Part shown: one piece after another, positions 4,776 to 34,104 of the stretch
Position numbering within the stretch: position 1 is the stretch's first letter
How the letters are laid out: every line of letters starts with the position of its first letter
NCBI GenBank assembly: GCA_964359735.1
Contig: CAYHTZ010000007.1
Coordinates: 1-48,484, forward strand
Length of the DNA stretch: 48,484 nucleotides
From: an uncultured Candidatus Saccharibacteria bacterium
Lineage (GTDB): Bacteria > Patescibacteriota > Andersenbacteria > UBA10190
Reading direction: 5' to 3'
Translations under genes and position numbers: made by a program
Notes under the pieces: model-generated
Told to the model about the DNA's origin: nothing
The model's input: only the letters and a program-made list of their open reading frames with translations
Databases searched by the model: none

Positions 4776-6728
4776 CTAATGAAGCTGCTCGAGTAGTCGC
4801 CTCGCCCCTTCACTGCGTGGTTCGCGCTCAAGCACGACCTCCGCTTGCTCTCGGGCCTTGTCATTCTCTCCGTTTGCCAAGTAGGCAACTGCCAAATTGA
4901 GCTTGGCATCGATGTATAAATCATCAGTGCCCACCGCCATTTCGAGGGGGGCTACGGCGTTTTCAGGTTGTCCTACCTTTAAGTACGCTACTCCCAGGTT
5001 GTTAAATGCATGAGTATATAAAGGTTCCAGCTCCGTGGCCTTTTTGAACAATTCCAGTGCGGTGTCATATTCCTCCTGCTGAGCTTTGAGCAAGCCTAAG
5101 TTATTATAAGCCTCAGCGTAGTTGGGGTTAAGGGAGATAGCTTCCCGAAACGTTCCCTCTGCCTGCTCTCCATCACCAATTCGCGTATAGGCAACCCCTA
5201 AATTATTCCACCCCCGAGCCTTTAAGGGCGATTTTTCAACAACATCGAGCCAAAGCCCCTGTTCACTTTGCCATGTTCCGTTTCGCGCTATTGTCGCGCC
5301 CGCAAAAATGACTACCACTGCCAGCCCCAGGGGTAGAAGAACTCGCCGGGGAAAGTAGACAGCTGCCACAGCAGACGCGGCCAGGAAAAACCCAAACGAT
5401 GGCAGATACAATCGGTGTTCATATATGACATCCCGAATGGGGATGAAGGAAGACTCCACTGAAAGGGCCAAAAAGAGGAAGAATATCCCGAATGACGCCA
5501 GCCGATTTCTTGGGTACAACCATGCTCCCAAACCCAGAATAGTGAGCAGTAAAACCAGCGACCCCAGCGTTCGCGCTTCCAGTAGAGAATGGGAAATCGG
5601 GTAATCGTAATCAAGGTTTTGATGTATAGGTAAAATCAAGAGCCGCAGATATGTCCGCACGACATTGATCTGAGTGAGTAAGTATTCACTGCGTGTAATG
5701 CTACTTGTTTCCGTAACAAGCGGCCGCCCGGGCTGAACTGCCGCATTTTCTACCAGAGGGTTATCCCTCTCCACCAGCGGCGGCCGATTTACCAAAAGTA
5801 TCAGAGGAATCACCAGAAGAAGTGATAAGTAAAGCAGAGCAACCCACCACATTACCTGCTCAGGTCGCGTCGAATCGCCCCGCGAGCGATTCGCGCTTTG
5901 GCTCAGCCAGCCACTGTCAAGTACTTGCCTTGACAACCCTTGCTGGCTCGGCTTCCGCAAGCCGTTCGCAGGTAACATGTCGGATTGCTCTGCAGCGTTA
6001 AGAGACGCGCCTGCCCCGCGAAGCTTTAGCGAAGTGGGGTGCTTGGAATGAAAAGGGGCGGGCGAAGGTGAGCCTTGAAAGAAAAACCACTCGATCATGA
6101 GGATCGCTATGGGCGCCGTGAACGCGATTTCCTTACTAAACATGGCCAAGAGAATCGCCAGCCAAGATAATAGATAGAGCCAATTCCAGCTGCTTACCCT
6201 GCCTGTCCGCCGAAGCTTTAGCGAAGGTGGGAGCCCTGTCGAAAGGCCTCTCTTCCTGGCTAAGACGTACAGTAAAAGCCCGGTGAGATAGAGAAGTGCG
6301 GTGAGGGAAGCCAGTCGCTGGATAATGTAGGTAACCGCTTGAGTTTGAACCGGGTGGCTTATAAAAAGTAAGGCAGTTGCGCCAGCGATTATGTGTGCCT
6401 GCTCCTTATACCTCGTTCTTGCACCGAGCTCCCTTACCAAGAAAAAAATTACGGTTGCCGACAGCAGGTGGGTAAGAATATTCACCGCGTGGTAGCTCAC
6501 AGTATTCTCACCGCTCAAAGCGTAGTTAGCTGCCAGTGTCAAGTACGGAATTATTCGAGTGGGGTATCGTTGTACGAGCGCAACCATGTCAAAGTCTCGC
6601 AAGGGAGCATTTCCGACAATTTCTACCAAGTCATCGAACACAAACGGTGAGGAAAGTGTGTTGGAGTAGGCAACTATGCCGACAATCCAAATAAGCAGCA
6701 GCCAGAACCAGCCTGATTTCCAATTCAT
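4776..6728 (-). CDS. TMTC-like GT-C fold membrane glycosyltransferase with C-terminal TPR repeats
   Basis: PFVFDD, SYHAVNILTH, HPVQTQAVTYIIQR, LAMFSKE, YEHRLYLPS, RNGTWQSEQGLW, then TPRs (NNLGVAY, EAYNNLG, AFNNLG). Contains two in-frame insertions. Confidence 0.85.
   Translation of the reverse strand: MNWKSGWFWLLLIWIVGIVAYSNTLSSPFVFDDLVEIVGNAPLRDFDMVALVQRYPTRIIPYLTLAANYALSGENTVSYHAVNILTHLLSATVIFFLVRELGARTRYKEQAHIIAGATALLFISHPVQTQAVTYIIQRLASLTALLYLTGLLLYVLARKRGLSTGLPPSLKLRRTGRVSSWNWLYLLSWLAILLAMFSKEIAFTAPIAILMIEWFFFQGSPSPAPFHSKHPTSLKLRGAGASLNAAEQSDMLPANGLRKPSQQGLSRQVLDSGWLSQSANRSRGDSTRPEQVMWWVALLYLSLLLVIPLILLVNRPPLVERDNPLVENAAVQPGRPLVTETSSITRSEYLLTQINVVRTYLRLLILPIHQNLDYDYPISHSLLEARTLGSLVLLLTILGLGAWLYPRNRLASFGIFFLFLALSVESSFIPIRDVIYEHRLYLPSFGFFLAASAVAAVYFPRRVLLPLGLAVVVIFAGATIARNGTWQSEQGLWLDVVEKSPLKARGWNNLGVAYTRIGDGEQAEGTFREAISLNPNYAEAYNNLGLLKAQQEEYDTALELFKKATELEPLYTHAFNNLGVAYLKVGQPENAVAPLEMAVGTDDLYIDAKLNLAVAYLANGENDKAREQAEVVLEREPRSEGARRLLEQLH
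5866..6009. other. 144-nt highly structured in-frame insertion bounded by a 6-bp inverted repeat
   Basis: CGCGTC (5866-71) and GACGCG (6004-09) enclose hairpins GAATCGC/GCGATTC (5872-92), AGCCAGC..TGTCAAG/CTTGACA..GCTGGCT (5905-48) and CGGCTT/AAGCCG (5949-64). Length is a multiple of 3. Confidence 0.55.
6010..6040 (+). repeat. CYTGCC-hairpin element (family A), in frame in the TMTC-like gene
   Basis: CCTGCCCCGCGAAGCTTTAGCGAAGTGGGGT; 30/31 identical to the reverse complement of 33407-33437. Confidence 0.9.
6198..6232 (+). repeat. CYTGCC-hairpin element (family A), in frame in the TMTC-like gene
   Basis: CCTGCCTGTCCGCCGAAGCTTTAGCGAAGGTGGGA; the gene reads it as PPSLKLRRTG. Confidence 0.88.
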
Positions 6729-6751
6729 CCTCTCAATCGTACACTACACAA
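6729..6751. promoter_or_regulatory. Bidirectional leaderless-type promoter spacer
   Basis: 23-bp spacer. TACACT + 6 nt + ATG 6752 on +; TACGAT + 7 nt + ATG 6728 on -. Confidence 0.6.
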
Positions 6752-7348
6752 ATGACTGTCTCTATCGTAATACCCGCCTACAACGAGGCAAAAAATCTCG
6801 GCCGTGTAATCAGCGATGTCCGCGCGGCCGGTTGGAACGATATCTTGGTGGTAGACGATGGCAGTACCGATGACACCAGTGAGGTAGCGAGGCAGCAAAA
6901 AGTCGACATAATTAGCCTGGAACATAACAGTGGCCAGGGAAAAGCGCTGCAAAGTGGTATTGAACACCTAAAAAACAATCAGAACCCTGATATCATTGTT
7001 ACCTTCGATGCGGACGGCCAACATCGGCCAGAAGACGTAAAAAGCCTTATTCAAGCCTTAGAAAAAGGAAATATCGACGCTGCACTGGGATCACGATTTT
7101 TGGAAAACTCTTCCCAAATCCCATTTTTTAAAAAAGCATTATTGAAATGTGCAGTTTTCTATACTCGCTGGACAACAGGATTAAACATCACCGACACCCA
7201 TAATGGCCTTCGCGCACTCACTCGGAAGGCTTACCAAACCATTAACCTCACCTGGCCCCGCCGCGCCCACGCCTCGCAAATTCTTCACCAAATTGCCCGC
7301 GCGAAACTTCGCTACGTCGAAGTGCCAGTCACAATTCTTTATAACTGA
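6752..7348 (+). CDS. Glycosyltransferase family 2 (DPM1-like), short C-terminus
   Basis: IVIPAYNE, VVDDGSTDDT, GQGKAL, TFDADGQH, ALGSRFL, TDTHNGLRA. Confidence 0.92.
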   Translation: MTVSIVIPAYNEAKNLGRVISDVRAAGWNDILVVDDGSTDDTSEVARQQKVDIISLEHNSGQGKALQSGIEHLKNNQNPDIIVTFDADGQHRPEDVKSLIQALEKGNIDAALGSRFLENSSQIPFFKKALLKCAVFYTRWTTGLNITDTHNGLRALTRKAYQTINLTWPRRAHASQILHQIARAKLRYVEVPVTILYN

Positions 7349-8162
7349 AGACTTTCGAGCGCTTCCGCCAGATTTTCGGCAATCCTTTCAACGCGTCATA
7401 CTTCGCTTTCCAAATAATTTTCCCATCGCCGCGGGCAGAGAGCCAGGCAAGCGAAGCGACTTGCCCCGCCACAATCGCTGGCCATTGATACCAATATTTC
7501 TTGGAAATGTTTTTGGCGATGTACCACACGTTATTCCGGTGGCCTAAATACATTGGCGCCGATGTATTAGATGCCGACGCCGAGCCCTCGTGAAAAACAA
7601 CTGCTTTCTCAGCAAGCACACACTGATACCCCAAGGCCCGTGCCTGCAGCCCTACGTCTGTGTCTTCGCCGTACATAAAAAAGTCCTCGTCAAAAAATTT
7701 ACCATCTCGGGAAACATCCTCGATTAGTTTTCGCGAATACAACGCTGCCGCTCCAGTGGGGCACAGCAGCTGTCCGTCAGAAGCAGATCGGCGGTTAAAT
7801 CCCAGCCGGGCAGAGTTTATTCGGAGCCCCATGCTTTCAATGGCATTGTTTGAAACTCGCCGCACAACTGGCGCCACCATTCCCGCGCCAGTTTCTTGTG
7901 GTGTCTTCATCATCTCGGTGAGCGCCGGAGGTTCAAGCTGCGCGTCGTTATTCAAAACCAAAACATAATCTACCGCAGAATCCTGAAGTACAGCCCGAAT
8001 TCCCACATTCGCCCCACCCGCAAACCCGCGATTTATTTTATCGTTATCTACTACTTGGGTACCAAAGTTCTTATACGTGCTTGCCTGCACGGAAGCCACG
8101 CATCTGCGTGTTACATCCCAATTTTTGTAGTGCACTACTACAACACCAACACGCGCTGCCAT
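7329..8162 (-). CDS. Glycosyltransferase family 2 (WbbL/rhamnosyltransferase-like)
   Basis: VVVVHYKN, NRGFAGGANVG, VLVLNNDA, FDEDFFMYGEDTDVG, VFHEGSAS. Confidence 0.92.
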   Translation of the reverse strand: MAARVGVVVVHYKNWDVTRRCVASVQASTYKNFGTQVVDNDKINRGFAGGANVGIRAVLQDSAVDYVLVLNNDAQLEPPALTEMMKTPQETGAGMVAPVVRRVSNNAIESMGLRINSARLGFNRRSASDGQLLCPTGAAALYSRKLIEDVSRDGKFFDEDFFMYGEDTDVGLQARALGYQCVLAEKAVVFHEGSASASNTSAPMYLGHRNNVWYIAKNISKKYWYQWPAIVAGQVASLAWLSARGDGKIIWKAKYDALKGLPKIWRKRSKVFSYKEL

Positions 8163-10393
8163 ACTTTTTCCTTGGTGAGTACCTGAAGCCGTTCCTGCAT
8201 CCGTTTGGCAAATGCAGCGAAGCCGTATCGCTCTTCAACATCCCGCGCCGCTCGCGCTCCCTTCTTTTGGGCTTCTTCTTGGTTATTCACTACGTCTCGC
8301 ATCGCTCGTGCCGCTGCCGCCACATCAGGGTCCGCCCATGTTCCACCGGCACGATATGGTCCGATATCGTGATTAAGTTTGATAAGCTGATAGGTAATGG
8401 GGTAACTATTTTCTTCATTCATATAATCCGTGTTTCCCGAATAGTTTGTGGCAATCGCCGGTTTGCTGTACATCATAGCCTCCGCCACAGTCACACCGAA
8501 CCCTTCTGACCGATGCAAGGAGACATAAGCATCGCAGTTCGCAATAAGCGCCTGCATGTCCGCGTGCTCCAACACGTCTTCAATCATTCTCCCTCCCACA
8601 CTCTCCAACTGCTCACGTAAGACGTGCCGCTGCTTAGGAAATGTGTGAGCATTCAGCACTTTCATCACAAGTATGGTGTCTGTTGAATTCATTCCAAATG
8701 CTTGTCGATACGCTTCAATAATTGCGTATGGATTTTTGCGCTCGATGTAACTGGCGAAATCAAATATAAACAAAAACATGAATTTGTCGGCAGGCAACCC
8801 TAGCCGCCTCCGAATAATGGTAGTAGGAAGTATCTTCTCAATGGGCGCACCTAATACCTTCACAGGAATATCGAGTTGAGATTGCACCGCCGCCTTTACG
8901 AACGAACTGCCCACCCAAACTTCATTGAGCAAGCTCTTGCGGTTCGCCCAATCCACCGGGAACTGCGGCAGCTCCCACGCCCAGTAGGCCACATTGATGG
9001 CGCCATTCCTCGCCACGCTCCCGTGCTGCGCCATTATTCCCGGTAAAATATCTGCGTTCACGTGCCACATGTTTAGTGCCAGTGTTTCTCTCAGCGGCTT
9101 CGGCAAATCTTCGACCACGACGCTGGCCCCGGGCGCTATCCCAAGATTCGTCCATGTTACCGGGGTATTTGTCTGTGCCAGTGCTCGCACGCTGCGCCGC
9201 GCTACTTCTCCCACACCGCCCGCATGGTCAAGAAAACCCACCACATTAATGCCGGGCGCCAAATGACCGATGGGCAGGGAGGAGACAACCCGTCCTGGCC
9301 GCAAAAACGCACGCTGCAAGGAGCCGATCGTTTTCCGTCCTAACAAAAATATCAGCGGCTTTTCCAGCCCGGCGGCGGCGAGGCCAGATGTCACCTGTCG
9401 ATACAACCACGGCGCCAGATCTTGCACTACCTGTTTACCTTGCCTGCCGGCCATAGCCTTGCCTGCCGGCCATAGCCTTGGCGTCGGCTGGGCGAAGGTG
9501 GGAGCCTGTATCTCTACGGACCACGACGACGTTTTTAAAAACCCCTTTTCCAAAAGACGCTTCCCATATTCATCGAAAATATTTTTAAGCTCCGGCAGCT
9601 TTTCAAACGTGAACCGATCCTGGTATTTCGAAATAACCTCGGGCTGCCGCGGGTCATAACCGCTGAAATGAAAGAATATGAGCGGCTGGCCGTTAACTCT
9701 ATACCCCTCTGGCGTCTCCGTTAGGCGCCGGTTACTGAAATCCCAATAGGCCATATTATGCCCGGGGTTGCGGTCTATCAAGACGCTTTCGTAAAACCCG
9801 GGTATCAAATCCATCCACTTCTGATCATAGTGTTCGTTCTTTTCCGGCGCGTTATGACTGTACGTAATGAGCCGTTCTTGCCACCAGGGCAGTAAGTGCT
9901 CGCTTTCTGCTCCGTGTGCCAGCCCCAAAAAACCTAAATTATAAATCCCTGCTTGAAACACGGTGAATTCATTCGGCCGCCTCTCTTCATCAAGCGGGCC
10001 CAAAATGTGCGGTGTCAGAATAATCGCGGATGTTTGCAATCGCTTCCAAATCGAATCAATGGGTCCGTAAAAATAAATATCCGGGTCGAAATAGCACACG
10101 TGCGCGAGACGTCGCTTCTCAAACAAATATTCCAACAAGAATGGTTTTACCGCTGTGCAAAGTTCGGCAACAGTGTACCGTTGTACCATCTCTGTGAGCC
10201 GTGGAATATCGAGGTCTCTAATCTGTACGGTTTCAAATTTTTCCCGCCGCGGGTCAAACTTCCCATTAATTTCATCCACAACCAGCACAAACACCTTCCC
10301 CTGAGGGTGAAATTTCAAAAACGACTCCGTCAGGCACCTCGCCTGCGCCAGGTAGTTCTTGGCAATAATCGTGCAGATGACAGGGTGCTCCAT
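8138..10393 (-). CDS. Two-domain glycosyltransferase: N-terminal GT-A (GT8-like) fused to C-terminal GT-B (GT4-like)
   Basis: N: CTIIAKNYLAQA, ELCTAVKP, YFDPDI, YNLGFLG, DQKWMD, FFHFSG. C: YWAWELP, FDFASYIERKNP, YVSLHRSEGFG, IATNYSGNTDY. Confidence 0.88.
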   Translation of the reverse strand: MEHPVICTIIAKNYLAQARCLTESFLKFHPQGKVFVLVVDEINGKFDPRREKFETVQIRDLDIPRLTEMVQRYTVAELCTAVKPFLLEYLFEKRRLAHVCYFDPDIYFYGPIDSIWKRLQTSAIILTPHILGPLDEERRPNEFTVFQAGIYNLGFLGLAHGAESEHLLPWWQERLITYSHNAPEKNEHYDQKWMDLIPGFYESVLIDRNPGHNMAYWDFSNRRLTETPEGYRVNGQPLIFFHFSGYDPRQPEVISKYQDRFTFEKLPELKNIFDEYGKRLLEKGFLKTSSWSVEIQAPTFAQPTPRLWPAGKAMAGRQGKQVVQDLAPWLYRQVTSGLAAAGLEKPLIFLLGRKTIGSLQRAFLRPGRVVSSLPIGHLAPGINVVGFLDHAGGVGEVARRSVRALAQTNTPVTWTNLGIAPGASVVVEDLPKPLRETLALNMWHVNADILPGIMAQHGSVARNGAINVAYWAWELPQFPVDWANRKSLLNEVWVGSSFVKAAVQSQLDIPVKVLGAPIEKILPTTIIRRRLGLPADKFMFLFIFDFASYIERKNPYAIIEAYRQAFGMNSTDTILVMKVLNAHTFPKQRHVLREQLESVGGRMIEDVLEHADMQALIANCDAYVSLHRSEGFGVTVAEAMMYSKPAIATNYSGNTDYMNEENSYPITYQLIKLNHDIGPYRAGGTWADPDVAAAARAMRDVVNNQEEAQKKGARAARDVEERYGFAAFAKRMQERLQVLTKEKVWQRVLVL
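9438..9503 (+). repeat. Composite CYTGCC-hairpin element with a 19-bp tandem duplication in the GT interdomain linker
   Basis: CCTTGCCTGCCGGCCATAG x2 (9438-56, 9457-75), then CCTTGGCGTCGGC, then tail GCGAAGGTGGGAG shared with 6221-6233. Confidence 0.85.
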
Positions 10394-10410
10394 AGCCGTA
10401 TAATCCTAGC

Positions 10411-11801: not shown

Positions 11802-11809
11802 AGCCTACC

Positions 11810-13317: not shown

Positions 13318-14397
13318 AACCTTCCTCAGCATATCGAACGTATTCTTGTCTTCAAAATCGGCGCCATTGGGGATGTCCTCTTGACCACACCCCTCATTCG
13401 CTCTCTGCGCTGTCGCTTCCCCGATGCGCGGATTGACTACCTGACCGGCGATCACTCTGCTCCCGCTCTCGCAAACAACCCGCATGTTAATGAAGCCATT
13501 CGCTTCAACGACGAAATTGTTCAAACGCGCAGCGTTCCTCGGCTCCTGGGGTTGGCTGTCAAAATCCGCCGCCGAAAGTACGACGTCATCTTGGTTCTCG
13601 ACCCCGGCTGGCAAGCCGGCCTTCTTGCCACTTTCTTTGGTGGCTTCCGCATCGGTTTCGATCGCGCGGGCGAAGGCAAGTTTCACTACCGCACTATTCC
13701 ATTTCATGCCACTCGGCATGATAGCAAACAATATCTCACCCTCGGAAAACTACTAGGTTACGAGACTGGTGATACGACGTTAGAACTCTTTCGCACTGCG
13801 GATGATGAATACAGAGCGGAAGAGCTTCTGAAAAATGTTTCCATTCCCCGCGTAGTGCTTTGCCCTGGCGGTGCCAAGAATCCCTACCAAGACATGCCCT
13901 CTCGTCGTTGGCCAGCGCACCAGTACCGCGAACTTGCCAATAAACTTGAAGCAGCCGGATTTTCTGCTGTGATACTAGGAAGCCAGACAGATGCAGACGT
14001 TGCCTGCGAAGTTGTTACACCGCGTAGCCTTAACCTGGTCGGTCGAACAACATTGGCCCAAGCAGCCGCTGTCATGGAAAGGTGCCAAGCAGTTGTTACA
14101 CACGACCAAGGACTCATGCATGTTGCCGCTACTAGTCGCACTCCCATAGCGGCCCTCTTTGGCCCCACTGATCCGCGTCGCAAAGGCCCTTTAGGAAAAA
14201 AGCATCACATCATCTGGCACGCCAGTGAGCCCTGTGAGCATAATGGAAAGCTTTTTCAGTGCGGACCTGCTCACGATATGCGGGCCATTTCTATCAACGA
14301 AGTTTTTGAAATTGTTTCTGACATCGTTTCTTCCTCAGTACGTAACATCTTGTCTGCAGTTGCTAGTACCTCTTCCACTGTTATAGCACGCACATAA
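13309..14397 (+). CDS. Glycosyltransferase family 9 (heptosyltransferase-like)
   Basis: ILVFKIGAIGDVLLTTP, VLCPGGA, RRWP, VTHDQGLMHVAA, ALFGPTDP. Start set to ATG 13309. Confidence 0.9.
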   Translation: MPHNLPQHIERILVFKIGAIGDVLLTTPLIRSLRCRFPDARIDYLTGDHSAPALANNPHVNEAIRFNDEIVQTRSVPRLLGLAVKIRRRKYDVILVLDPGWQAGLLATFFGGFRIGFDRAGEGKFHYRTIPFHATRHDSKQYLTLGKLLGYETGDTTLELFRTADDEYRAEELLKNVSIPRVVLCPGGAKNPYQDMPSRRWPAHQYRELANKLEAAGFSAVILGSQTDADVACEVVTPRSLNLVGRTTLAQAAAVMERCQAVVTHDQGLMHVAATSRTPIAALFGPTDPRRKGPLGKKHHIIWHASEPCEHNGKLFQCGPAHDMRAISINEVFEIVSDIVSSSVRNILSAVASTSSTVIART

Positions 14398-15488
14398 CGA
14401 GAGGGGTCACCGCTGATACGTAGCATTCCCGGCACTTCGCCGCGGCTCACATTGATAATGGGGTTATCTTCCAGCTGGTGATATAGTGCCTGATTTTTTG
14501 GGCCGTATGGTCCCAACCGTACCGGCGTCTCCGGGCCAAATAACCCCAGCGTTGGTGCTACCATCGCCGCTGATACATGCATGAGCCCGCCGTCGTTCGC
14601 AATAGTTAGTCGGCACTGGGAAAGAAGTTCCGCCACTTCCGGTAAACTCAAATCTGAAACTATTCGCGCGGAGTTTTTCATCTTCTTCTGCACATCGCGC
14701 AGGATTGGTTCGTCAGCTTCATCTCCCACCAACACTATTTCGCACCCATGTTTCCCAACCAAATAATCCGCCACTTGCGCAAATCGCTCCACCGGCCACC
14801 TACGAAAATCCACGCCGCCACCAGGCGCCAGAGCTATTGTTAAGTGTGTCGCGGGCCCCGCCTTCGCTAAAGCTTCGGCGGGCAGGCCTGCCTTTGTTCC
14901 AGCGCGCGGCGCCCCTCGTAGCCTTGGCGTAGTGGGGTCACCCGCGACAGCTATAAGATTCATCGGAACTTCTTCCTCAACCTCCACCGCCCGCACCAAA
15001 TCAAAATTTGTTTTTACCACGTGCTGGTCATCTTGATAGGGAACAGCCTTCGTGTACAGCTTGCCGCGTGTCAACGTATCAAACCCCAGCGAATATTTTC
15101 CGATCATCCGCGCCAGAAACGCCGACACATAAAAATACGGCTCGAAATCAATCGCGATATCAAATTTTTTCCTGTGCTGAAACACCCAATGTACACTTCG
15201 TAGGTGTAAGTTGGGTCGCAGGACCACAACTTCATCAATAAACGCTTGTCCCCGAAAAACATCTACCGCTCGCGGCGTTGTTACAACCGTGATTTTCGCC
15301 CCCGGCCATTGTGTTTTTAACGCCTGTATCGCCGGCAACGCCAACAAACTTTCCCCAATCGCCCACAGGCGGATGACTCCTAGGCTTTGAGGTGGTCTTG
15401 TGAGTGGGGCTTCTGCGAGAGGCATGAAAAACCGTGCCAGCTTTCCTAGGTATCGATCTATGTATAGTAGGTAACGCTTTTTTCCCAT
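14271..15488 (-). CDS. Glycosyltransferase family 9 (heptosyltransferase-like), second copy
   Basis: VIRLWAIGESLL, ALAPGGG, RRWPVERF, IANDGGLMHVSAA, LGLFGPETP; in-frame insertion between the two Rossmann domains. Confidence 0.9.
   Translation of the reverse strand: MGKKRYLLYIDRYLGKLARFFMPLAEAPLTRPPQSLGVIRLWAIGESLLALPAIQALKTQWPGAKITVVTTPRAVDVFRGQAFIDEVVVLRPNLHLRSVHWVFQHRKKFDIAIDFEPYFYVSAFLARMIGKYSLGFDTLTRGKLYTKAVPYQDDQHVVKTNFDLVRAVEVEEEVPMNLIAVAGDPTTPRLRGAPRAGTKAGLPAEALAKAGPATHLTIALAPGGGVDFRRWPVERFAQVADYLVGKHGCEIVLVGDEADEPILRDVQKKMKNSARIVSDLSLPEVAELLSQCRLTIANDGGLMHVSAAMVAPTLGLFGPETPVRLGPYGPKNQALYHQLEDNPIINVSRGEVPGMLRISGDPSRYVRAITVEEVLATADKMLRTEEETMSETISKTSLIEMARIS
14856..14892 (-). repeat. 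CYTGCC-hairpin element (family A), in frame in GT9
   Basis: Minus strand GGCAGGCCTGCCCGCCGAAGCTTTAGCGAAGGCGGGG, read as KAGLPAEALAKAG. Confidence 0.9.
14911..14939 (+). repeat. Family A hairpin variant, in frame in GT9
   Basis: GCCCCTCGTAGCCTTGGCGTAGTGGGGTC; inner stem GCC-TT-GGC replaces GCT-TT-AGC (compensatory change). Confidence 0.75.
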
Positions 15489-21961: not shown

Positions 21962-23500
21962 GTGCCTGCGCGGATAGAGACAGCTGCACTGAAGGGGATT
22001 GAAGCCACTTCGGTGGAAGTTGAGGTTGATGTATTACCCGGCCTACCCAGCTTTACCGTCGTTGGCCTAACCGATAAAGCTATTCAAGAATCACGGGAAC
22101 GGTTAACCGCAGCGCTTTCATTTCTGGGCTACGAGCCACCCCGCCGCAAAACCATTGTCTCTCTCGCACCAGCGAGTCTCAAGAAAGAAGGTTCAATGTA
22201 CGATCTACCCATTACGCTCGGCTTCCTTGTTGCCAGTCGACAATTGAAAGGGCTTGCCCCGAGCGCAGTCGAGGGGTGGTTCGCGGGCGAACTCGGCCTC
22301 GACGGCGCGCTGCGCGCCGTGCGCGGTGTTCTTCCCATTACCTTGGCCGCCGTAAAATCCGGCATCAAATCACTGTATATTCCCGCGGGCAATGAACCTG
22401 AAGCCGCTGTCTTTGCTGATCAAATCGAAATCTTGGCCGTCCACTCTTTACAAGAATTAGTCGACCACCTCACGAAAAAACATGAGATCAAACCGAGCAA
22501 ACTTCATAAAGTAAATGTTGCGGATGTTCCCCCGGAAGTCGATTTCGCTGATATCAAAGGGCAGGATTACGCTAAGCGCGCGCTTACCATTGCCGCCGCT
22601 GGCCACCACCATGTCTTAATGGCCGGCCCACCGGGTGCGGGGAAAACTCTTCTGGCTCGGGCGATGGCAGGGATTTTGCCACCCATGACACGCGAAGAAC
22701 AGTATGTTGTCTCTTCCTTATATTCTGTCGCTGGGCTTTTGCCGGATAACCACGGCTTGGTGCAACATCGCCCGGTGCGCTCACCTCACCATGGCGCCAG
22801 CAGTGTCGCGCTTGTCGGCGGGGGAACGAACCCGCGTCCGGGGGAAGTGAGCCTGGCTCACCACGGGGTTTTATTTCTCGACGAGCTTCCCGAATTTCCA
22901 CGGCAAACGCTGGATCAGTTGCGTCAACCTATCGAAGACGGTTTTGTCACCGTTTCCCGCGCCGCGCAAACGATCCGCTACCCCGCGCGCTCGATGGTCA
23001 TCGGCGCCATGAACCCATGTAAATGCGGCTATCTTGGCAGCGACACCCGCGAGTGCCGCTGCACGCCGGGGGACGTCACCCGCTATCAACGCAAATTGTC
23101 AGGTCCCTTCCTCGATCGCTTTGATCTGCACGTGATGGTCCGTGATGTGCCGTTAGAAGAACTGCTCGATGAAAGCCACTCGAGCGGCACGCCTTCAGCA
23201 ACACTGCGCGAGAAAGTAACTGCTGCGCGGGAGCGCCAACTCGCGCGACAAGGGAAACCTAACAGCGAACTTTCCGCCCGGGAACTCAAAAAACACTGTG
23301 CTATCGACGCCCGCTCGAAATCCCTCCTTTCCGCCGCTGAGCGCCGCTTCCACATTTCCTCCCGCGGTGTGCACCGCATCCTCAAAGTTGCCCGCACCAT
23401 TGCCGACTTGGCCGGCGAGGATTCCATCTCCGCCGCTCACGTGGCTGAGGCTTTGCAATACCGCGAACAACTCCAACAAGCCATACCCACATTTGTTTAG
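21962..23500 (+). CDS. comM: YifB/ComM Mg-chelatase-like AAA+ helicase
   Basis: VEVEVDVLPGLPSFTVVGL, KEGSMYDLPI, GELGLDG, GPPGAGKT, PGEVSLAHHGVLFLDELPEF, AMNPCKCGY, LSGPFLDRFD, ARTIADL. Start set to GTG 21962. Confidence 0.95.
   Translation: MPARIETAALKGIEATSVEVEVDVLPGLPSFTVVGLTDKAIQESRERLTAALSFLGYEPPRRKTIVSLAPASLKKEGSMYDLPITLGFLVASRQLKGLAPSAVEGWFAGELGLDGALRAVRGVLPITLAAVKSGIKSLYIPAGNEPEAAVFADQIEILAVHSLQELVDHLTKKHEIKPSKLHKVNVADVPPEVDFADIKGQDYAKRALTIAAAGHHHVLMAGPPGAGKTLLARAMAGILPPMTREEQYVVSSLYSVAGLLPDNHGLVQHRPVRSPHHGASSVALVGGGTNPRPGEVSLAHHGVLFLDELPEFPRQTLDQLRQPIEDGFVTVSRAAQTIRYPARSMVIGAMNPCKCGYLGSDTRECRCTPGDVTRYQRKLSGPFLDRFDLHVMVRDVPLEELLDESHSSGTPSATLREKVTAARERQLARQGKPNSELSARELKKHCAIDARSKSLLSAAERRFHISSRGVHRILKVARTIADLAGEDSISAAHVAEALQYREQLQQAIPTFV
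22253..22276 (+). repeat. Short CYTGCC-hairpin element, in frame in comM
   Basis: CTTGCCCCGAGCGCAGTCGAGGGG (LAPSAVEG); CCCC/GGGG stem with GA/GA tandem. Confidence 0.6.
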
Positions 23501-25036: not shown

Positions 25037-25055
25037 CTTTCTATTGTATCAAATC

Positions 25056-25385: not shown

Positions 25386-25727
25386 ATGAGCTGGTCGACA
25401 CTCTTTCCGCTGCTCAGCGTTGTTTTGTTGAGCCTTGTGGGGGTTACCGCTGACTCTTTTATTAAGACAGCCGGCGCCGGCCCAAAATATCTGAGCCTAC
25501 AGTATTTGCTGATCGGTATGGCCATCTATGCCATTACCGGCCTGGGTTGGTTTGCCGTGATGAAGCAAGTCGACCTAAGCACGCTAGGTGTCTTCTACGC
25601 CGTAAGTACTAGCCTGGCGCTTACCGCTGTAGGAATTTTTGTCTTCAAGGAGAATGTCAATGCTACAGAAGGCCTCGGTATCGCCATGGCCCTGTCCTCG
25701 CTCTTCCTCCTAGCCCGGTTCGCGTGA
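25386..25727 (+). CDS. Small 4-TM DMT/SMR-type transporter
   Basis: 113 aa, four hydrophobic helices, DLSTLGVFYA, GIFVFKE...GLGIA. Confidence 0.82.
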   Translation: MSWSTLFPLLSVVLLSLVGVTADSFIKTAGAGPKYLSLQYLLIGMAIYAITGLGWFAVMKQVDLSTLGVFYAVSTSLALTAVGIFVFKENVNATEGLGIAMALSSLFLLARFA

Positions 25728-25728
25728 T

Positions 25729-27279: not shown

Positions 27280-27319
27280 GTTCACTCACGCCCCTGAGGT
27301 GTTTGCCTAAAAAAAATTC

Positions 27320-27916: not shown

Positions 27917-27957
27917 AAGCATTACACTCATTCCTGAATCAGGTGTAGGATGGATAC

Positions 27958-28824: not shown

Positions 28825-28884
28825 CAAACATCTGACGCCCTGCAGCATCGTTTTATACAAAATCCTGGAAAAACCCGGAAGAAT

Positions 28885-30474
28885 CTAAGCAGCCATTGCT
28901 GCCCGGGCCAGCCTAATCCTTTCATCCATATGGCGCTGAAGCACTTGGGGAGTGCTATCTTCGGGTTGAGTGTCTTCTCGATAAAACAGCAGAGCCTGTT
29001 CCCGATTATGCTTAAGTGACTCAGTGGTCAAATTTGCAGAGCCAACCAAAATATATTTGTCGTCCACAACCATGAGCTTGGTATGTAAAACCTCATCAGC
29101 CTTCCAGATTTGGAGCTGCCCGTTCGCGATAAAATCTGCCGCCAGCGCTTCTAAGATTTGAAAATATTCCTCATTTGCCGCTTCTATACTTGGCATCTCC
29201 GGCTGACTTCTTAAGATAGTCACGTGTACCCCACGCTTGAGCGCTCTCATGATGGCATTAATGACAAGCATGCTCATAAGGTACGCGTGCTCGAATTTAA
29301 TACTGTTCTCAGCACCATTAATTAGCGTTACAACCGCAGAGGTTATTTGGAAACGCTCAGCGCCCTTTTCTCTCCCGTCTTCCGCTGAGTAATTGCGCAA
29401 GCACCAGACCGGTACCTGTTCATCTGATTCGCGCCTGCGGTTTTCACGCTCTGACGCGTCAACATCAGGCTCAAAGTTCATTTGCCGGCTAATATCTTCT
29501 GTTGCATCTCCCGTGAGCATGATCATGTAATCGCGCCACCCCTTTCTTCCGTTCGTGCCGAAATAGTCCAAACCGAAATTCGCGCCGCCGCAAATAACTG
29601 TTCTATCCACTCGAATGGTTTTGCCGTGATCCATCGTTTCTAAGTCATCATTACTAATGACCACGTTCACACCTATTCGACGTAACATCTTGAGCCAGGG
29701 ATTATACGCCAGCACTGTTTTTTCGCTAATCAGCCGGCTAATAAGTTTTGAGACAGCTTTTTGTTTCTTATATTTCATTCGGTAGAACTCGCGTACATTA
29801 GAGAAAAGCATTTTCGCTCCCTGGACGATCGTCTTTGGGCCAATGAAGAGTCGAAGGCATTCAAACAAGAAGCGAGGTAACTTCTTAATACCAAACCAAA
29901 ACCTTCTGATAGTGCTCATATGAACTAAACTCCCCACAGCCATCGTGCCAATACGGTCAACGGTTGCACGGACCTCCACTTGTTTTCCTGGTTTCTGGAT
30001 GAGATCAGTGAGTGCCTGAGCCACTTCGCCTCCCACCTCATCATCCCCCCAGCTATACATGTGAATATCAACTACTTCTTGTGCGTTTCTAATGAGGTCT
30101 GCGACTTCGGCTACCGTCTGCCGATCAGTGACAAGAACTTTGGTTACATTGAAACTGCCAGGTGCCTTAGTCTTTTTTACAATTTTACCGATCATTGGGT
30201 CCGCTGCTTCAATCTCGCGAATCGTGGAGGCAGGAGGAGGCTGAGTAGGCAGAGCCTCACGCATGGTTTCCCGGGGCGCATCTCGTTCCAAGGACTTTGC
30301 ACCTGGTAAAGGAAGAGATACCTGCTCCTGGCTCGCCAGGAGATTCGACTCCTCTGAAACGGGGGGCGGTAGGGGAGGAGTTTCGCCCTGAGCCCAAGAG
30401 TTTACGCCTGCTCCTTCACCTAGGTTCTCGCCCATATTCCTCAAAGTATCGGAAATACTGGAAAAACCAAACAA
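28885..30474 (-). CDS. Phospholipase D superfamily (cardiolipin synthase-like) with long Pro/Glu-rich N-terminal extension
   Basis: Two HKD motifs: HGKTIRVD..GGANFG and HTKLMVVD..VGSANL. Confidence 0.85.
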   Translation of the reverse strand: MFGFSSISDTLRNMGENLGEGAGVNSWAQGETPPLPPPVSEESNLLASQEQVSLPLPGAKSLERDAPRETMREALPTQPPPASTIREIEAADPMIGKIVKKTKAPGSFNVTKVLVTDRQTVAEVADLIRNAQEVVDIHMYSWGDDEVGGEVAQALTDLIQKPGKQVEVRATVDRIGTMAVGSLVHMSTIRRFWFGIKKLPRFLFECLRLFIGPKTIVQGAKMLFSNVREFYRMKYKKQKAVSKLISRLISEKTVLAYNPWLKMLRRIGVNVVISNDDLETMDHGKTIRVDRTVICGGANFGLDYFGTNGRKGWRDYMIMLTGDATEDISRQMNFEPDVDASERENRRRESDEQVPVWCLRNYSAEDGREKGAERFQITSAVVTLINGAENSIKFEHAYLMSMLVINAIMRALKRGVHVTILRSQPEMPSIEAANEEYFQILEALAADFIANGQLQIWKADEVLHTKLMVVDDKYILVGSANLTTESLKHNREQALLFYREDTQPEDSTPQVLQRHMDERIRLARAAMAA

Positions 30475-30495
30475 AACTCAGTAGTTTAAGTACAC

Positions 30496-30530
30496 GCGCC
30501 CGTAGCTCAGCGGATTAGAGCGCTTGGCTT
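30496..30530 (+). pseudogene. 5' half of a tRNA-Arg-like gene, broken in the anticodon loop
   Basis: GCGCCCG-TA-GCTC-AGCGGATTA-GAGC-G-CTTGG-CTT, then unrelated palindromes; no 3' half (CCAAG...TTCGA...CGGGCGC) follows. Confidence 0.75.
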
Positions 30531-30568
30531 TCCGCCAGCACGGCGGACCCGCTGAACTAGCGGGCGGA
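30531..30568. repeat. Double-hairpin element interrupting the tRNA half
   Basis: TCCGCC-agcac-GGCGGA and CCCGCT-gaact-AGCGGG, followed by CGGA. Confidence 0.7.
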
Positions 30569-30581
30569 CTGTACCTTATCT

Positions 30582-30653
30582 GCTCTCGTGGTGAAATGGA
30601 TATCACACCAGGCTTCGGACCTGGCGTTGGGAGTTCGAATCTCTCCGAGAGCA
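30582..30653 (+). tRNA. tRNA-Arg(TCG), CCA not encoded
   Basis: GCTCTCG/CGAGAGC acceptor stem, CCAGG-CT-TCG-GA-CCTGG, TTCGAAT. Confidence 0.93.
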
Positions 30654-30656
30654 CTC

Positions 30657-31829
30657 ATGATCAATACCATTCTCAACAAATTACAATCGCGCTGGCAGGG
30701 GCCACCCATTACGGTGGAAATAAAGGGCAAATCCTACCAGCTAGGGCAGGGAACTCCCAAGACCCGGCTGATCATCAAGAACCCAAGCGTATTGCCCCGT
30801 TTCCTCTTTAGCACCTCCCTTGCTTTCGGCGAAGCCTACATGAATGGTGGTATAGAAGTTCAAGGCGATCTCTTGGATATTCTTGAAGGTTATCATTCCT
30901 CCCGCGTCGCGTTCCCACCGTTGGCGCGTCCAATGAGTAACACGGTAGGCAACCTTCCTATCTCCGTGAAACGCGCCGCCAAGAACGCCCAACACCATTA
31001 CGACATCGGCAACGATTTTTACAAATTGTGGCTAGGCAAAGAACGGGTTTACTCTTGTGCCTACTTCTTGAATAAAAAAGATGACATTGATACTGCCCAA
31101 GAACAAAAGCTCGAACTCGTTTGTCGCAAAGCCCGCTTACAACCTGGTCATACCTTACTTGATATTGGTTGCGGTTGGGGAGGTCTTATGTTTCATGCCG
31201 TGAGAAGCTACGGTGTGCATGCGACTGGTATAACCCCTGCCAACGAACAAGCCAATTTTATTGAAGCCAAAGCGAAGGAAGAAGGTCTCCAAAACAAAAT
31301 CAATGTCATTCGCGACGATTGGCGCTCCTTGAAAGGAAAATACGACAGAGTGGTTAGCATTGGCATGTTCGAGCATGTAGGGAAGCGCCAATACTCCGCC
31401 TTCATTAAAAAGTGGCGCGAGCTTTTACAAGAAGACGGCGTCTCGCTGCTGCACACCATCGGTCGCATGTCGCCCTCTGGTTCCGACCCCTGGGTCACAA
31501 AGTATATTTTCCCCGGCGGGTATTTGCCCACGCTTTCTCACATGACAGACCCTATCGCCAAGCACGATATGCTGGTCGCTGACATCGAAAATCTCTGGCA
31601 GCACTACGATTTAACACTCCAGCATTGGCTGAAGAATTTTGAAGAACATGTCCCTGAAATCACGAAGATGTTCGATGAAAAGTTTGTCCGCATGTGGCGC
31701 CTGTACCTGGCCGGCTCAATCAGTATGTTCCGTTGGGGTAGCATCCATCTCTGGCAAGCCGTGATTTTACCTTCCAAAAAATCCCCCTGGCCGTTAAATA
31801 GGGAAGTAAATGCCGCGCAGCGATCTTAA
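30657..31829 (+). CDS. cfa: Cyclopropane-fatty-acyl-phospholipid synthase family methyltransferase
   Basis: LAFGEAYMNG, HHYDIGNDFYKLWL, YSCAYF, LLDIGCGWGG, SIGMFEHVG, KYIFPGGYLP, RMWRLYL. Start set to ATG 30657 because the track start lies inside the tRNA. Confidence 0.93.
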   Translation: MINTILNKLQSRWQGPPITVEIKGKSYQLGQGTPKTRLIIKNPSVLPRFLFSTSLAFGEAYMNGGIEVQGDLLDILEGYHSSRVAFPPLARPMSNTVGNLPISVKRAAKNAQHHYDIGNDFYKLWLGKERVYSCAYFLNKKDDIDTAQEQKLELVCRKARLQPGHTLLDIGCGWGGLMFHAVRSYGVHATGITPANEQANFIEAKAKEEGLQNKINVIRDDWRSLKGKYDRVVSIGMFEHVGKRQYSAFIKKWRELLQEDGVSLLHTIGRMSPSGSDPWVTKYIFPGGYLPTLSHMTDPIAKHDMLVADIENLWQHYDLTLQHWLKNFEEHVPEITKMFDEKFVRMWRLYLAGSISMFRWGSIHLWQAVILPSKKSPWPLNREVNAAQRS

Positions 31830-34029
31830 ACTTTCTTCCCTGATCACCGAGGTACCCAGAGTTGGGCCGGCGAAGGCGAAGTTCCTGAAGAAACTGGGCA
31901 TTACGCACGTGCGGGATATACTCTACACCTTCCCGCGCCGGTATGACGACTTCTCCCGCGTGACGCCGATTGCGGAGCTCAAGGTTGGTGAGAAAATGAC
32001 GGTCAAAGGCAAAGTGAAAAAAGTTGAAAGCAAGTGGGGCTTCTACGGCCGCCGGCGTCTCTTGCGCATTTTCGTCGATGTTGAAGACGACACGGGGGTG
32101 CTTCACATTACCTGGTTCAACTTACGTTTCCTCCCCAAGCAGTTACCAGTGGAAAGGGAAATTCTCGTGGCGGGGGAGGTAGAAGAATATAGACCTCATC
32201 CGCCTCGCCACGAGTCGGCTTCTCCTTCTCAAGGAGAAGCACCTCTCCTTACGAAGGAGAGGTCGGCGAACGGGCCGGGTGAGGTGCATTTCCGCATGCG
32301 CTCTCCCGTACTGGAGTATGTTCACCCTGAGGAAGAGGGAGGACCGACCCACACCGCGCGCATCACGCCTGTTTACCCTGAAACGTATGGGGTGACCTCA
32401 CGCTTTATTCGCTACCAAGTGAAAAGTCTCCTACCGCTCATCCAAGCTCTTCCCGAGTATATTCCGGCAGAAATCCTGGAGCGGCATCATTTGCCAGGTA
32501 TTCGCGAAGCTATTCGCGCCACTCATTTCCCTGAAAACCAAGAAGAGCTTGAACCTGCCCAGCGGCGTCTCAGATTCGACGAATTATTTTTCCTGCAACT
32601 CGCCGCGCTTGTCCGCCGCCGTCTCATTCAACAAGAGCCTGCTTATCCGATACCCATTGAAAAACTCTCCATAGATCGATTTATGGAGAGGTTGCCATTC
32701 AAACTTACCAATGCACAGCAGGGAGCCCTCAAGGAAATTCTGGCTGATCTCAAAAAACCTGTGCCTATGAATCGCTTATTACAAGGCGACGTCGGCTCGG
32801 GCAAGAGCGCCTTGGCGCTCATTGCCACCCAAGTCGTGGTTGCGGCCGGCTATAAGGCTCTGTACCTCGCCCCTACCGAAATCCTTGCCCGCCAGCAAGC
32901 GGAGGTTTTTTCAAAAGCTTTGCTCCCCCTTACGAAGGGGGAGTCCCGAGGCAACCGAGGGGAAGGGGTCGAACTGCTCATCGGTGCCCTACCACCCTCC
33001 GAAAAACAGCGCATCAAAAAGCGTCTTTTGAGTGAGGAATCCCTTTGTGTGGTTGGCACTCATGCGCTTCTCCAAGAAGACGTCCATACGCATCGCGTGG
33101 CGCTCGCCATTGTCGACGAGCAGCACCGCTTTGGCGTTGAACAGAGGAAAGCGTTACAACACGCCAACGAAGGGGAAGTCCCGCACTTACTCTCTATGAC
33201 AGCCACACCTATCCCGCGTACGCTGAATCTTACTGTCTACGGCGATTTGGATGTTTCTGTCTTAAACGAGCTCCCCGCCGGCCGAAAACCGATTCAAACT
33301 AGGATTGTTGCTCCGGAAAACCGCGATGAGGCCGCAATCCACACCCTCGAGCAGCTTCACGCTGGCCGCCAAGCCTATGTGATTGCACCGCGAATAGCGG
33401 AATCAGACCCCACTTCGCTGAAGCTTCGCGGGGCAGGAAAACTAGAAGTAAAATCTGCTACTCAAACATTTGAAGAAATGAAGCATCTTTTCCCCGGTAT
33501 TGCGGTGGGGTTGGTGCACGGGCAAATGAAGTCGGAGGAAAAAGAACGTGTCATGCGGCATTTCGGTGCGGGCGCTATCCAGCTCCTCGTCTCAACTGCC
33601 GTAGTAGAAGTCGGCGTGAATGTTCCCAACGCCACTGTCATGATCATTGAAGGCGCCGAGCGCTTTGGCTTGGCTCAGCTGCACCAGCTGCGGGGGAGGG
33701 TAGGCAGAGCCGAGCACCAATCGTATTGCTACCTTTTCCCGACTACAAACGAAGCTGCCGAAGGTGAGCGTTTGCAAATTCTCGAACGAACTACTGATGG
33801 TTTCGTCATTGCTGAGAAAGATCTAGAGCTGCGCGGCCCGGGGGAAATCTACGGTGTGCAACAGTCCGGCTTCAGCGACCTCAAAGTTGCCTCACTCTTA
33901 GATTACGCCACTATCAAAATCGCCCGCGAAGAAGCCGAACGTATTCTTACAAAAGATCCTGATCTCAGAAATCATGACATTCTAAGAAGGAAAGTGGAAC
34001 AAAAGAATGTCCAAACACACTTCGAATAG
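31810..34029 (+). CDS. recG: ATP-dependent DNA helicase RecG with three in-frame palindromic insertions
   Basis: FPRRYDD, LLQGDVGSGKS, APTEILARQ, VDEQHRFGV, MTATPIPRTL, VHGQMK, EVGVNVPNA, RFGLAQLHQLRGRVGR, DLELRGPG. Confidence 0.97.
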   Translation: MPRSDLKLSSLITEVPRVGPAKAKFLKKLGITHVRDILYTFPRRYDDFSRVTPIAELKVGEKMTVKGKVKKVESKWGFYGRRRLLRIFVDVEDDTGVLHITWFNLRFLPKQLPVEREILVAGEVEEYRPHPPRHESASPSQGEAPLLTKERSANGPGEVHFRMRSPVLEYVHPEEEGGPTHTARITPVYPETYGVTSRFIRYQVKSLLPLIQALPEYIPAEILERHHLPGIREAIRATHFPENQEELEPAQRRLRFDELFFLQLAALVRRRLIQQEPAYPIPIEKLSIDRFMERLPFKLTNAQQGALKEILADLKKPVPMNRLLQGDVGSGKSALALIATQVVVAAGYKALYLAPTEILARQQAEVFSKALLPLTKGESRGNRGEGVELLIGALPPSEKQRIKKRLLSEESLCVVGTHALLQEDVHTHRVALAIVDEQHRFGVEQRKALQHANEGEVPHLLSMTATPIPRTLNLTVYGDLDVSVLNELPAGRKPIQTRIVAPENRDEAAIHTLEQLHAGRQAYVIAPRIAESDPTSLKLRGAGKLEVKSATQTFEEMKHLFPGIAVGLVHGQMKSEEKERVMRHFGAGAIQLLVSTAVVEVGVNVPNATVMIIEGAERFGLAQLHQLRGRVGRAEHQSYCYLFPTTNEAAEGERLQILERTTDGFVIAEKDLELRGPGEIYGVQQSGFSDLKVASLLDYATIKIAREEAERILTKDPDLRNHDILRRKVEQKNVQTHFE
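32218..32263. repeat. Two adjacent perfect hairpins (family B), in frame in recG
   Basis: GCTTCTCCTT-ctc-AAGGAGAAGC and ACCTCTCCTT-acg-AAGGAGAGGT. Confidence 0.85.
32923..32963. repeat. Family B hairpin pair, in frame in recG
   Basis: CTCCCCCTT-acg-AAGGGGGAG followed by TCCC-GA-GG-caa-CC-GA-GGGGA; shares CCTT-ACG-AAGG with 32241-63. Confidence 0.85.
33407..33437 (-). repeat. CYTGCC-hairpin element (family A), in frame in recG
   Basis: Plus strand ACCCCACTTCGCTGAAGCTTCGCGGGGCAGG, read as PTSLKLRGAG, the same peptide as in the TMTC-like protein. Confidence 0.92.
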
Positions 34030-34104
34030 CTAAGGCCTGCCCCGTACCGAACTTGTTCTGGTGCTGGGGTCGAGCAGAAAAATTTACAGACCCATTTTGA
34101 GTAG
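34030..34104 (+). pseudogene. Orphan, synonymously diverged second copy of the recG C-terminus carrying its own hairpin insert
   Basis: CTA AGG [33-nt CCTGCCCCGTACCGAACTTGTTCTGGTGCTGGG] GTC GAG CAG AAA AAT TTA CAG ACC CAT TTT GAG TAG = LR..VEQKNLQTHFE*, versus recG LRRKVEQKNVQTHFE*. Confidence 0.85.

Follow-up and report, generated by a model that had tools for sequence, protein, structure and literature searches.

A hairpin repeat of about 30 nt lies in frame inside several protein-coding genes of a 48,484-nt contig (the window; contig C7 of a genome of 1.12 Mb in 41 contigs, with a completeness rating of 100%) whose RecG protein has its neighbors in Candidatus Andersenbacteria (Patescibacteria, or candidate phyla radiation, CPR). 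The copies form a repeat family with a conserved and covarying structure; they have been inserted in frame into genes, extend across the phylum, are linked to the genes of a small nuclease, and are biased in their orientation. We consider it probable, though well short of certain, that the hairpin is a strand-oriented, single-strand-folding repeat and that it belongs, as a companion motif, to a clade of very small stand-alone GIY-YIG proteins, found across Patescibacteria, which consist of the catalytic domain only (78-82 aa). By analogy with described hairpin–nuclease pairs, the enzyme would bind or cut the hairpin and drive its spread. An earlier sequence-only reading of the window had proposed a non-autonomous, dispersed hairpin element that lives in frame in coding DNA and adds peptide loops to proteins, comparing it with REP elements and their RAYT transposases. 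Our analysis confirms the observation and partly supports the interpretation, and the phenomenon is far larger than the window indicates.

In the conserved span of 30-31 nt, a leader (G-C-C-T-G) precedes an outer stem of 6 bp, whose two arms are separated by G-N-A, an inner stem-loop, and G-A-A. The outer stem occurs in several variants (CCCCGC/GTGGGG, CCCGCC/GGCGGG, CCGGCC/GGCTGG, and TCCGCC/GGTGGA), and the inner stem-loop is most commonly GCT-TT-AGC or GCC-TT-GGC. In a set of 48 copies, 96.5% of the cells were paired, in comparison with 80.7% in shuffled data and at most 49% with slid partners; this set was chosen for pairing, and an unselected core search gave the same alternation of GCT/AGC and GCC/GGC. 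The covariation of the inner stem, claimed from the window alone, holds across the set: pair 20-23 is never broken, 25 copies having U-A and 23 having C-G. Pair 12-31 is C-G in 22 copies and G-C in 18, and pair 13-30 is C-G in 25, G-U in 20, and G-C in 1. A search with nhmmer recovered further inner hairpins (GCTC-TTT-GAGC, GCTCC-AAA-GGAGC, GCCC-GTTA-GGGC, and GCTTC-7 nt-GAAGC). Since the inner hairpin varies against a constant outer stem and constant G-N-A loops, it is the fold and not the peptide that is kept, as the sequence-only reading had supposed. The G-U wobble pairs are workable on the leader-bearing strand only, and this strand folds better than its complement both as RNA (-14.8 kcal/mol, z = -2.5, versus -8.2) and as DNA (-4.3 versus -2.3 kcal/mol). 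An alternative drawing with two mini-hairpins of the GCGAAGC type was rejected: the twin hairpins are not conserved in the CCCGCC/GGCGGG subtype, and the long hairpin covaries.

Across the genome we found 66 copies with nhmmer (E<0.01) and 81 with R1, a covariance model built from 48 genome copies. The majority of the 66 (54, or 82%) lie wholly inside stop-to-stop open reading frames (ORFs) of at least 150 aa, in comparison with 89% of random 34-nt positions, and the element is thus not excluded from genes. Both orientations are used (20 copies sense and 34 antisense to the host gene), and five of the six frame and orientation classes are occupied, giving the readings PTSLKLRGAG, LP(A/R)EALAK(A/W)G, APRSFSEVG, (H/A)FAKAS(R/A)GR, and RLR(R/Q)GFGGQA; the class that reads TAG is empty, and the class that reads TAA contains only variants without that stop. 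The hosts include UvrA (1514 bits), the NAD-dependent DNA ligase LigA (802 bits), and LeuRS (986 bits, two copies), all scoring above curated cut-offs with the element inside, and an S1-domain protein that carries two copies in its tail and is matched best by models of 30S ribosomal protein S1, with about 260 bits and so under the cut-offs. The copies are clustered, with 7 neighbor pairs less than 300 bp apart against 1.2 expected, and some of the intergenic ones are followed by T-rich sequence. Neither regular spacing nor enrichment near particular gene classes was seen among the genome copies.

Comparison with orthologs indicates that the copies are insertions. In RecG, eight orthologs from other genera of the same family (57-66% identity) all have a 10-residue gap exactly at PTSLKLRGAG, and because dozens of copies are found at other places in several of these genomes, the copy in RecG was gained in one lineage. 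An example of an insert-spanning peptide is ...ESDPTSLKLRGAGKLEVK.... PTSLKLRGAG is also read from a TPR/TMTC-like ORF of the window, as the sequence-only reading had pointed out; there, the copy at 6009-6040 falls within a stretch of 60-80 aa that three homologs lack, and the copy at 6200-6232 within an insertion of about 14 aa relative to three homologs. In the GT9 heptosyltransferase, the copy at 14904-14941 corresponds to a 12-aa gap in all seven homologs, and the region of the copy at 14853-14890 shows a net gain of 9 to 12 aa over homologs of about 28% identity. The claim that the inserts fall in loops draws weak support from an AlphaFold model of RecG, predicted from a nine-sequence alignment and of poor quality (mean pLDDT 56.8), in which the three inserted stretches of the protein are coil.

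Of the other two stretches, a repeat of about 90 nt with several hairpins (window 32200-32290, plus strand; RecG residues ~128-157) does not belong to the CCTGCC-led family but behaves in the same way: it is in frame, reads ...HESASPSQGEAPLLTKERSANGPGEV..., and is missing from the orthologs. Within an outer stem, ACCTCA/TGAGGT, it has four short hairpins arranged like a cloverleaf, among them CTTCTCCTT-CTCA-AGGAGAAG and CCTCTCCTT-ACGA-AGGAGAGG. It has eight further matches in the genome (C23:4145, C11:23614, C2:25350, C21:11596, C10:27900, C34:2462, C9:10493, and C22:13806; C numbers denote contigs), and nine copies were aligned. A third in-frame insert of RecG (window ~32925-32960, residues ~372-385) reads PLTKGESRGNRGE, is based on the hairpin CTCCCCCTT-ACGA-AGGGGGAG, and corresponds to a gap of 11 residues in each of the eight orthologs.

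No partner gene was found in the window, in agreement with the sequence-only reading, which had placed the mobilizer outside it. A search of the genome for nuclease and transposase genes flanked by the hairpin singled out a stand-alone GIY-YIG nuclease. The genome encodes five catalytic-domain-only GIY-YIG proteins, two of which (C2:839-1084, 82 aa; C26:6261-6494, 78 aa) match PF01541 over nearly their whole length (66 and 55 bits) and are 46% identical to each other. Both genes have an element copy 10-15 nt before the start codon, and upstream of them lie tRNA-Gly(UCC) and tRNA-Ala(UGC), respectively. A third paralog (C11:5997-6230, found by profile search only) has three upstream hairpins of the same architecture and different sequence. 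A profile of the C2 and C26 proteins found relatives in 178 of 301 genomes sampled evenly across the phylum, and about 22 of the 30 best nuclease loci, from many families, have an R1 match 5-70 nt upstream on the coding strand, in most cases directly behind a tRNA gene. At many loci a second, inverted hairpin lies 50-90 nt further upstream; the genes are flanked on their upstream side and rarely on both.

An alignment of 19 loci from different families resolved one common arrangement. It starts with the T-arm and ...CCACCA end of a tRNA, which itself provides the first arm of a reverse-oriented hairpin that finishes with TGGCAGGCC; the terminal TGGCA(A/G)GCC of this hairpin is the complement of the leader GGCYTGCC. 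A spacer of about 50 nt and a forward hairpin (GAAGnGTGCCCTnC-GAA-GCTnnAGC-GAA-GnAGGGC) follow, and the nuclease ATG is found 5-25 nt beyond the latter, the gene starting with ATGTATTACG. The hairpin and the nuclease (presence threshold E<=1e-15) also occur in the same genomes: among the 301, both were found in 86, the hairpin only in 42, the nuclease only in 16, and neither in 157 (odds ratio 20, p = 9e-27), and the association persists for genomes with at least four copies (odds ratio 14, p = 9e-19). The most likely partner of the element is, then, the tiny stand-alone GIY-YIG nuclease and not a transposase of the REP type.

Three further loci involve a hairpin or a GIY-YIG gene. tRNA-Leu(UAG) at C8:26041-26231 has inverted element copies 24 nt upstream and 9 nt downstream, with no nuclease gene nearby. 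A GIY-YIG gene (C21:17064-17294, in the region C21:16950-17385) lies between a partial copy of a tRNA 5' half, which carries a hairpin (CCGCCAGTTCGGCGGG) at the position of the D-loop, and an intact tRNA-Glu(UUC). A stand-alone GIY-YIG ORF of 88 aa within 23S rRNA sequence (C26:10567-10833) is probably a homing endonuclease encoded by an rRNA insertion, of a kind common in CPR.

The element is not confined to the genome of the window. It was found in 128 of the 301 phylum genomes and in more than 100 genera, with near-consensus copies scoring above 50 bits in distant families. Its presence is patchy: among 31 relatives, 23 have it, with 0 to 81 copies per genome, and within the same family four complete genomes are without it and others have 76, 68, and 54 copies. 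In other phyla, R1 found none in 17 of 20 genomes (~75 Mb). The exceptions outside CPR include a 0.8-Mb metagenome-assembled genome (MAG) labeled Gammaproteobacteria and a Bacteroidota MAG, with two or three weak matches each. An Ignavibacterium album MAG (G330) has six R1 matches within 5 kb (C54:213.7-218.5 kb), two of them overlapping in tandem; this cluster may have been acquired by transfer or may be CPR DNA binned in error.

The orientation of the copies is associated with GC skew. The leader strand lies on the strand of negative skew in 51 of the 66 copies (p = 1e-5), a result stable for windows of 5-40 kb. The bias is seen with host genes on either strand and outside genes (32 versus 8 for genes on the G-rich strand, 11 versus 4 for genes on the C-rich strand, and 8 versus 3 for copies outside genes), which argues that the orientation follows replication, or another cause of skew, and not transcription. 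In a genome of another family (G073, 0.74 Mb), 28 of 30 hairpin matches are on the plus strand, which has negative skew in eight of the nine 20-kb windows sampled, with values from -0.17 to -0.26 in five; the one-sided skew of this genome covers both of its contigs, which is unusual for bidirectional replication unless the contigs break at the origin and the terminus. From the general rule and from the 61% of crude genes found on it, we take the G-rich strand to be the leading one. If so, the better-folding strand would mostly lie on the leading-strand template, as expected if a copy whose recognizable strand becomes exposed on the lagging-strand template is cut and disappears, or if insertion favors one strand. 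The GC skew shows no switch at dnaA (contig C2, ~33.7 kb), and the skew minimum of the window (~36-38 kb) was ruled out as an origin region by its gene content.

The copies of the window, scanned with R1 with filters off, are listed below. The sequence-only reading had counted at least eight related elements, of which six (6010, 6201, 9458, 14857, 14907, and 33407) are firm members. The one at 34036 is a borderline relative, and the one at 22253 is not a member. This last site is a chance resemblance within a conserved ComM motif: the Pfam ChlI domain aligns contiguously there (residues 57-181, profile positions 1-121), leaving no space for an insert. The near identity of copies 27 kb apart was reproduced, the 31-nt arms at 6010-6040 and 33407-33437 being 97% complementary, and the arms at 6201-31 and 14857-87 are complementary to 94%. 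A 15-mer core with at most three mismatches gave 6 matches in the window against 2.06 expected by chance. The two copies in the GT9 ORF form a head-to-head doublet. The copy in the GT4 ORF has its own 5' half partly duplicated in direct tandem (9438-9476; 22 nt, CCTTGCCTGCCGGCCATAG twice), which suggests a slippage or repair event at the hairpin.

Copies of the hairpin element and related sites in the window, with R1 scores, hosts, and readings
Feature	Position	R1 match	Strand	R1 score	Host or context	Sequence, variant, or reading
Element copy	6009-6040	6006-6043	+	54.4 bits	TPR/TMTC-like ORF 4776-6728(-)	GCCTGCCCCGC GAA GCT TT AGC GAA GTGGGG T; antisense reading PTSLKLRGAG
Element copy	6200-6232	6198-6235	+	44.3 bits	TPR/TMTC-like ORF 4776-6728(-)	stem variant TCCGCC/GGTGGG; reading LPPSLKLRRTG
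Diverged element copy	9438-9495	9458-9495	+	28.4 bits, E=5e-5	GT4 glycosyltransferase ORF 8138-10393(-) (Pfam)	CCGGCC ATA GCC TT GGC GTC GGCTGG
Element copy	14853-14890		-	54.5 bits	GT9 heptosyltransferase ORF 14271-15488(-)	perfect stem CCCGCC/GGCGGG; reading LPAEALAKAG
Element copy	14904-14941		+	36.4 bits	GT9 heptosyltransferase ORF 14271-15488(-)	subtype GTA/GTA, GCC/GGC; reading DPTTPRLRGA
Element copy	33407-33437	33404-33441	-	50.2 bits	RecG 31810-34029(+)	10 codons PTSLKLRGAG between ...IAESD and KLEVKSA
Borderline relative	34032-34073		+	14.4 bits, E=0.18	intergenic, directly 3' of the RecG stop codon	leader GGCCTGCCCCG...TGGGGTC and outer stem as in the family; 20-nt interior differs
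Non-member, ComM coding sequence	22249-22280		+	10.5 bits, E=1.8	ComM	conserved ComM motif ...GLAPSAVEGWFAGELGLDG...

In the explanation that we favor, the hairpin is a companion of the GIY-YIG nuclease; its solo copies are scattered over the chromosome nearly irrespective of genes. The nuclease would recognize the hairpin in its folded form and on just one of the DNA strands, as the Ssn nucleases do, and new copies would arise by a nuclease-dependent nick or break followed by copying from another hairpin. Copies in genes could survive as the 30-nt unit equals 10 codons, provided that the frame is free of stops (the consensus leaves four of the six frames open, and a fifth is free of stops in the GCC/GGC or TC-loop variants) and that the site is a tolerant surface loop or linker. 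The location of the leader strand on the C-rich strand fits an enzyme acting on single-stranded DNA (ssDNA) exposed at replication; the bias could then come from strand-specific insertion or from purging of those copies that the enzyme can cut on the exposed strand. A bolder proposal, to which we give distinctly less credence and which we hold as a tentative possibility, is that the cassette of tRNA end, two hairpins, and GIY-YIG gene is a minimal mobile element of Patescibacteria not described before, whose structure-specific single-strand nuclease would seed solo 30-nt hairpins oriented to one strand into replicating DNA and so write 10-residue loops into essential proteins throughout the radiation. 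The reverse strand of the element begins like a tRNA 3' end, which suggests that the system originated from tRNA gene ends and still targets them.

Several observations weigh against the favored explanation. GIY-YIG enzymes are nucleases and not transposases, and alone they do not explain how a 30-nt unit is written into new sites. The closest sequences to the nuclease in the PDB are UPF0213 BH0048 (1zg2, E = 7e-10) and SLX1, which makes membership in the Ssn clade proper tentative; the published SRM pattern HGTCWY..YYVSBRH..WNVSBRG..RNCYNB matches 0 of the 66 copies and has 9 matches in the genome against 8.2 in shuffles. The co-occurrence statistics ignore phylogeny, GC content, and genome size and are partly circular, as the cassette itself adds one or two hairpins, and there are exceptions on both sides: 3 genomes with at least seven copies have no GIY-YIG match, and 16 genomes have the nuclease at the threshold above without the hairpin. 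As to insertion, the empty sites are seen only in orthologs of 34-66% protein identity, which do not fix the exact junctions, and one copy of the GT9 doublet aligns over native sequence with no gap in homologs that are about 28% identical. A search of metagenome contigs for the RecG flanks joined by N{1,31} gave 0 matches, the near-identical records perhaps being outside the searched set. The sequence-only reading had looked to target-site duplications as a mark of insertion; neither these nor a target consensus were evident in the flanks of the element, and TTTAC occurs directly 3' of it in about 5 copies only.

We consider it unlikely, yet more plausible than the other alternatives, that the hairpin serves the host as an oriented signal read by the nuclease or by another conserved factor, either controlling the recombination of incoming ssDNA in natural transformation, as NTS does in Neisseria, or marking polarity for replication or segregation, and has spread by biased uptake, gene conversion, and selection. 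The conservation of a 30-nt sequence across more than 100 genera would be unusual for a selfish repeat, its polarity relative to GC skew resembles that of Chi and KOPS, and ComM and other competence-type genes are present; in addition, the Ssn/NTS pair offers a precedent, as it modulates transformation (PMC11893778). However, the element is patchy even within one family, and complete genomes that lack it altogether show that no essential signal is involved. Clean insertions of 10 codons in essential genes are a high price for nothing more than a signal, uptake sequences are normally the product of point mutation and not of insertion, and the regular spacing or gene-class enrichment that might mark a signal was not seen.

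The origin favored by analogy in the sequence-only reading, a REP- or REPIN-type element mobilized in trans by a RAYT (an HUH Y1 transposase) and tolerated in genes where intergenic space is scarce, now looks improbable. The element does have a REP-like size, a GC-rich stem, and a conserved 5' tag, it forms head-to-head doublets and clusters, and single-strand HUH transposition, too, is marked by an orientation bias relative to replication. Furthermore, Y1_Tnp presence correlates with the element (odds ratio 2.7-3.9, p = 1e-5 to 1e-6), and a truncated RAYT-like gene is found at the start of contig C12 (C12:2-530). However, the Y1 association is far weaker than that of the GIY-YIG nuclease, and 16 genomes with at least seven copies, closed ones included, have no Y1_Tnp. 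The RAYT-like gene is below the family cut-off (best NCBIfam match REP_Tyr_transpos, 55 versus 80 bits), and the hairpin that follows it belongs to another family, CTGATTCCACAC-CCC-GTGTGGAATCAG, with 7-8 copies. Nor are the RAYT-like genes of relatives flanked by the element: six Y1-transposase loci (two IS200-type and four RAYT-like) gave no significant R1 match, the best being 11.4 bits, and a scan of four of these loci for inverted repeats showed no hairpin, of whatever family, that flanks them in common. Finally, the foot of the element lacks a GTAG or CGTC tag, its leader being G-C-C-T-G, and GTAG occurs only in the internal loop of the GTA subtype. Less probable still is an element acting at the RNA level, as a transcript stabilizer, terminator, or protein-binding site, with the DNA copies secondary. 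The wobble pairs workable on one strand only (G-U 20 times and G-C once at pair 13-30), the good RNA fold of the leader strand, and the T-rich sequence after some intergenic copies would suit such a role; the mixed and antisense-leaning orientation relative to host genes does not, and neither does an orientation that tracks GC skew whatever the gene strand. Rfam detected only three tRNAs in the window and no family covering the hairpin, and enzymes of the SsnA type have no action on RNA (PMC11893778).

The hairpin directly 3' of the truncated RAYT-like gene (C12:536-562) is of a dRS3/NTS-shaped family, (C)TGATTCCACAC-CCC-GTGTGGAATCA(G), with further sites at C6:39403, C6:40637, C4:27316, C12:16684, and C1:112434. 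On C6, two inverted copies of it flank a gene for a secreted-looking protein of 382 aa.

In its behavior within genes, the element is closest to the Rickettsia palindromic elements (RPEs), hairpin repeats reportedly described in frame in coding genes by Ogata et al. in Science in 2000. RPEs are ~100-150 bp long and restricted to one genus, and we know of no partner enzyme established for them. The two have in common the in-frame location in housekeeping genes, translation into extra surface segments, the use of both orientations, small host-dependent genomes, and empty sites in orthologs. Here, however, the unit is 30 nt, is nearly unchanged across a phylum-level radiation, is linked to a nuclease and to tRNA genes, and has a strand bias related to replication; differing in size, range, and sequence, it is an analog of the RPEs and not a member of them. 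The DUS and USS uptake sequences of Neisseriaceae and Pasteurellaceae are words of 10-12 nt that arise by point substitution and have no covarying stems. They too are short, abundant, and oriented, frequent in coding regions, and read in several frames in tolerant protein segments, whereas here whole 30-nt hairpins have been inserted. REP and REPIN elements with their RAYTs are said to be known from work by Nunvar in 2010, Bertels and Rainey in 2011, and Ton-Hoang in 2012. REPs are extragenic and lineage-specific, and the RAYT gene is flanked by them. The present element shares with REPs the short, GC-rich, tagged hairpins, the inverted doublets, copy numbers of tens to hundreds, and an expected action on single strands; it differs in being mostly intragenic and in flanking the GIY-YIG gene and not the RAYT-like gene (comparison literature: PMC3337134 and PMC3733652).

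In partner and logic, and judged by analogy, the closest system is the Ssn/NTS pairs. SsnA, a single-domain GIY-YIG protein of 94 aa, binds its hairpin as ssDNA only and on a single strand, cutting just upstream (Chenal et al. 2025, PMC11893778); the repeats flank the SsnA gene, and the system is enriched in symbionts (PMC11893778). Both systems have a tiny single-domain GIY-YIG protein (94 aa in Ssn and 78-82 aa here) whose gene is adjoined by a dispersed hairpin (20-50 nt in Ssn), in both a non-palindromic upstream tag orients the hairpin, and in both repeat-rich genomes usually encode the nuclease. They differ in the leader (GCCTG here, CGTC in NTS), in the G-N-A/G-A-A internal loop and inner hairpin found here, and in the cassette here abutting a tRNA 3' end. 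The location of copies differs too: 2% of NTS copies are intragenic, in comparison with ~80% of copies in ORFs here. A literature search for Patescibacteria or CPR with REP, RAYT, miniature inverted-repeat transposable elements, or palindromic elements found no description of such a repeat.

There is a demand for molecular tools that cut ssDNA with strand and structure specificity (PMC11893778), and the pairing proposed here provides a concrete candidate, an 80-aa nuclease with a putative 30-nt target. The insertions would explain odd peptides that recur in CPR proteins (PTSLKLRGAG, LPAEALAKAG, APRSFSEVG, FAKASAGR, and RLRRGFGGQA), and these may serve as a marker for alignment and annotation artifacts. 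The orientation of the copies would also serve as a natural probe for the biology of replication strands in organisms that do not grow in isolation. In Patescibacteria, a bacterial radiation among the largest and least understood, selfish or semi-selfish DNA inside working genes, known mainly from Rickettsia, would be a general feature.

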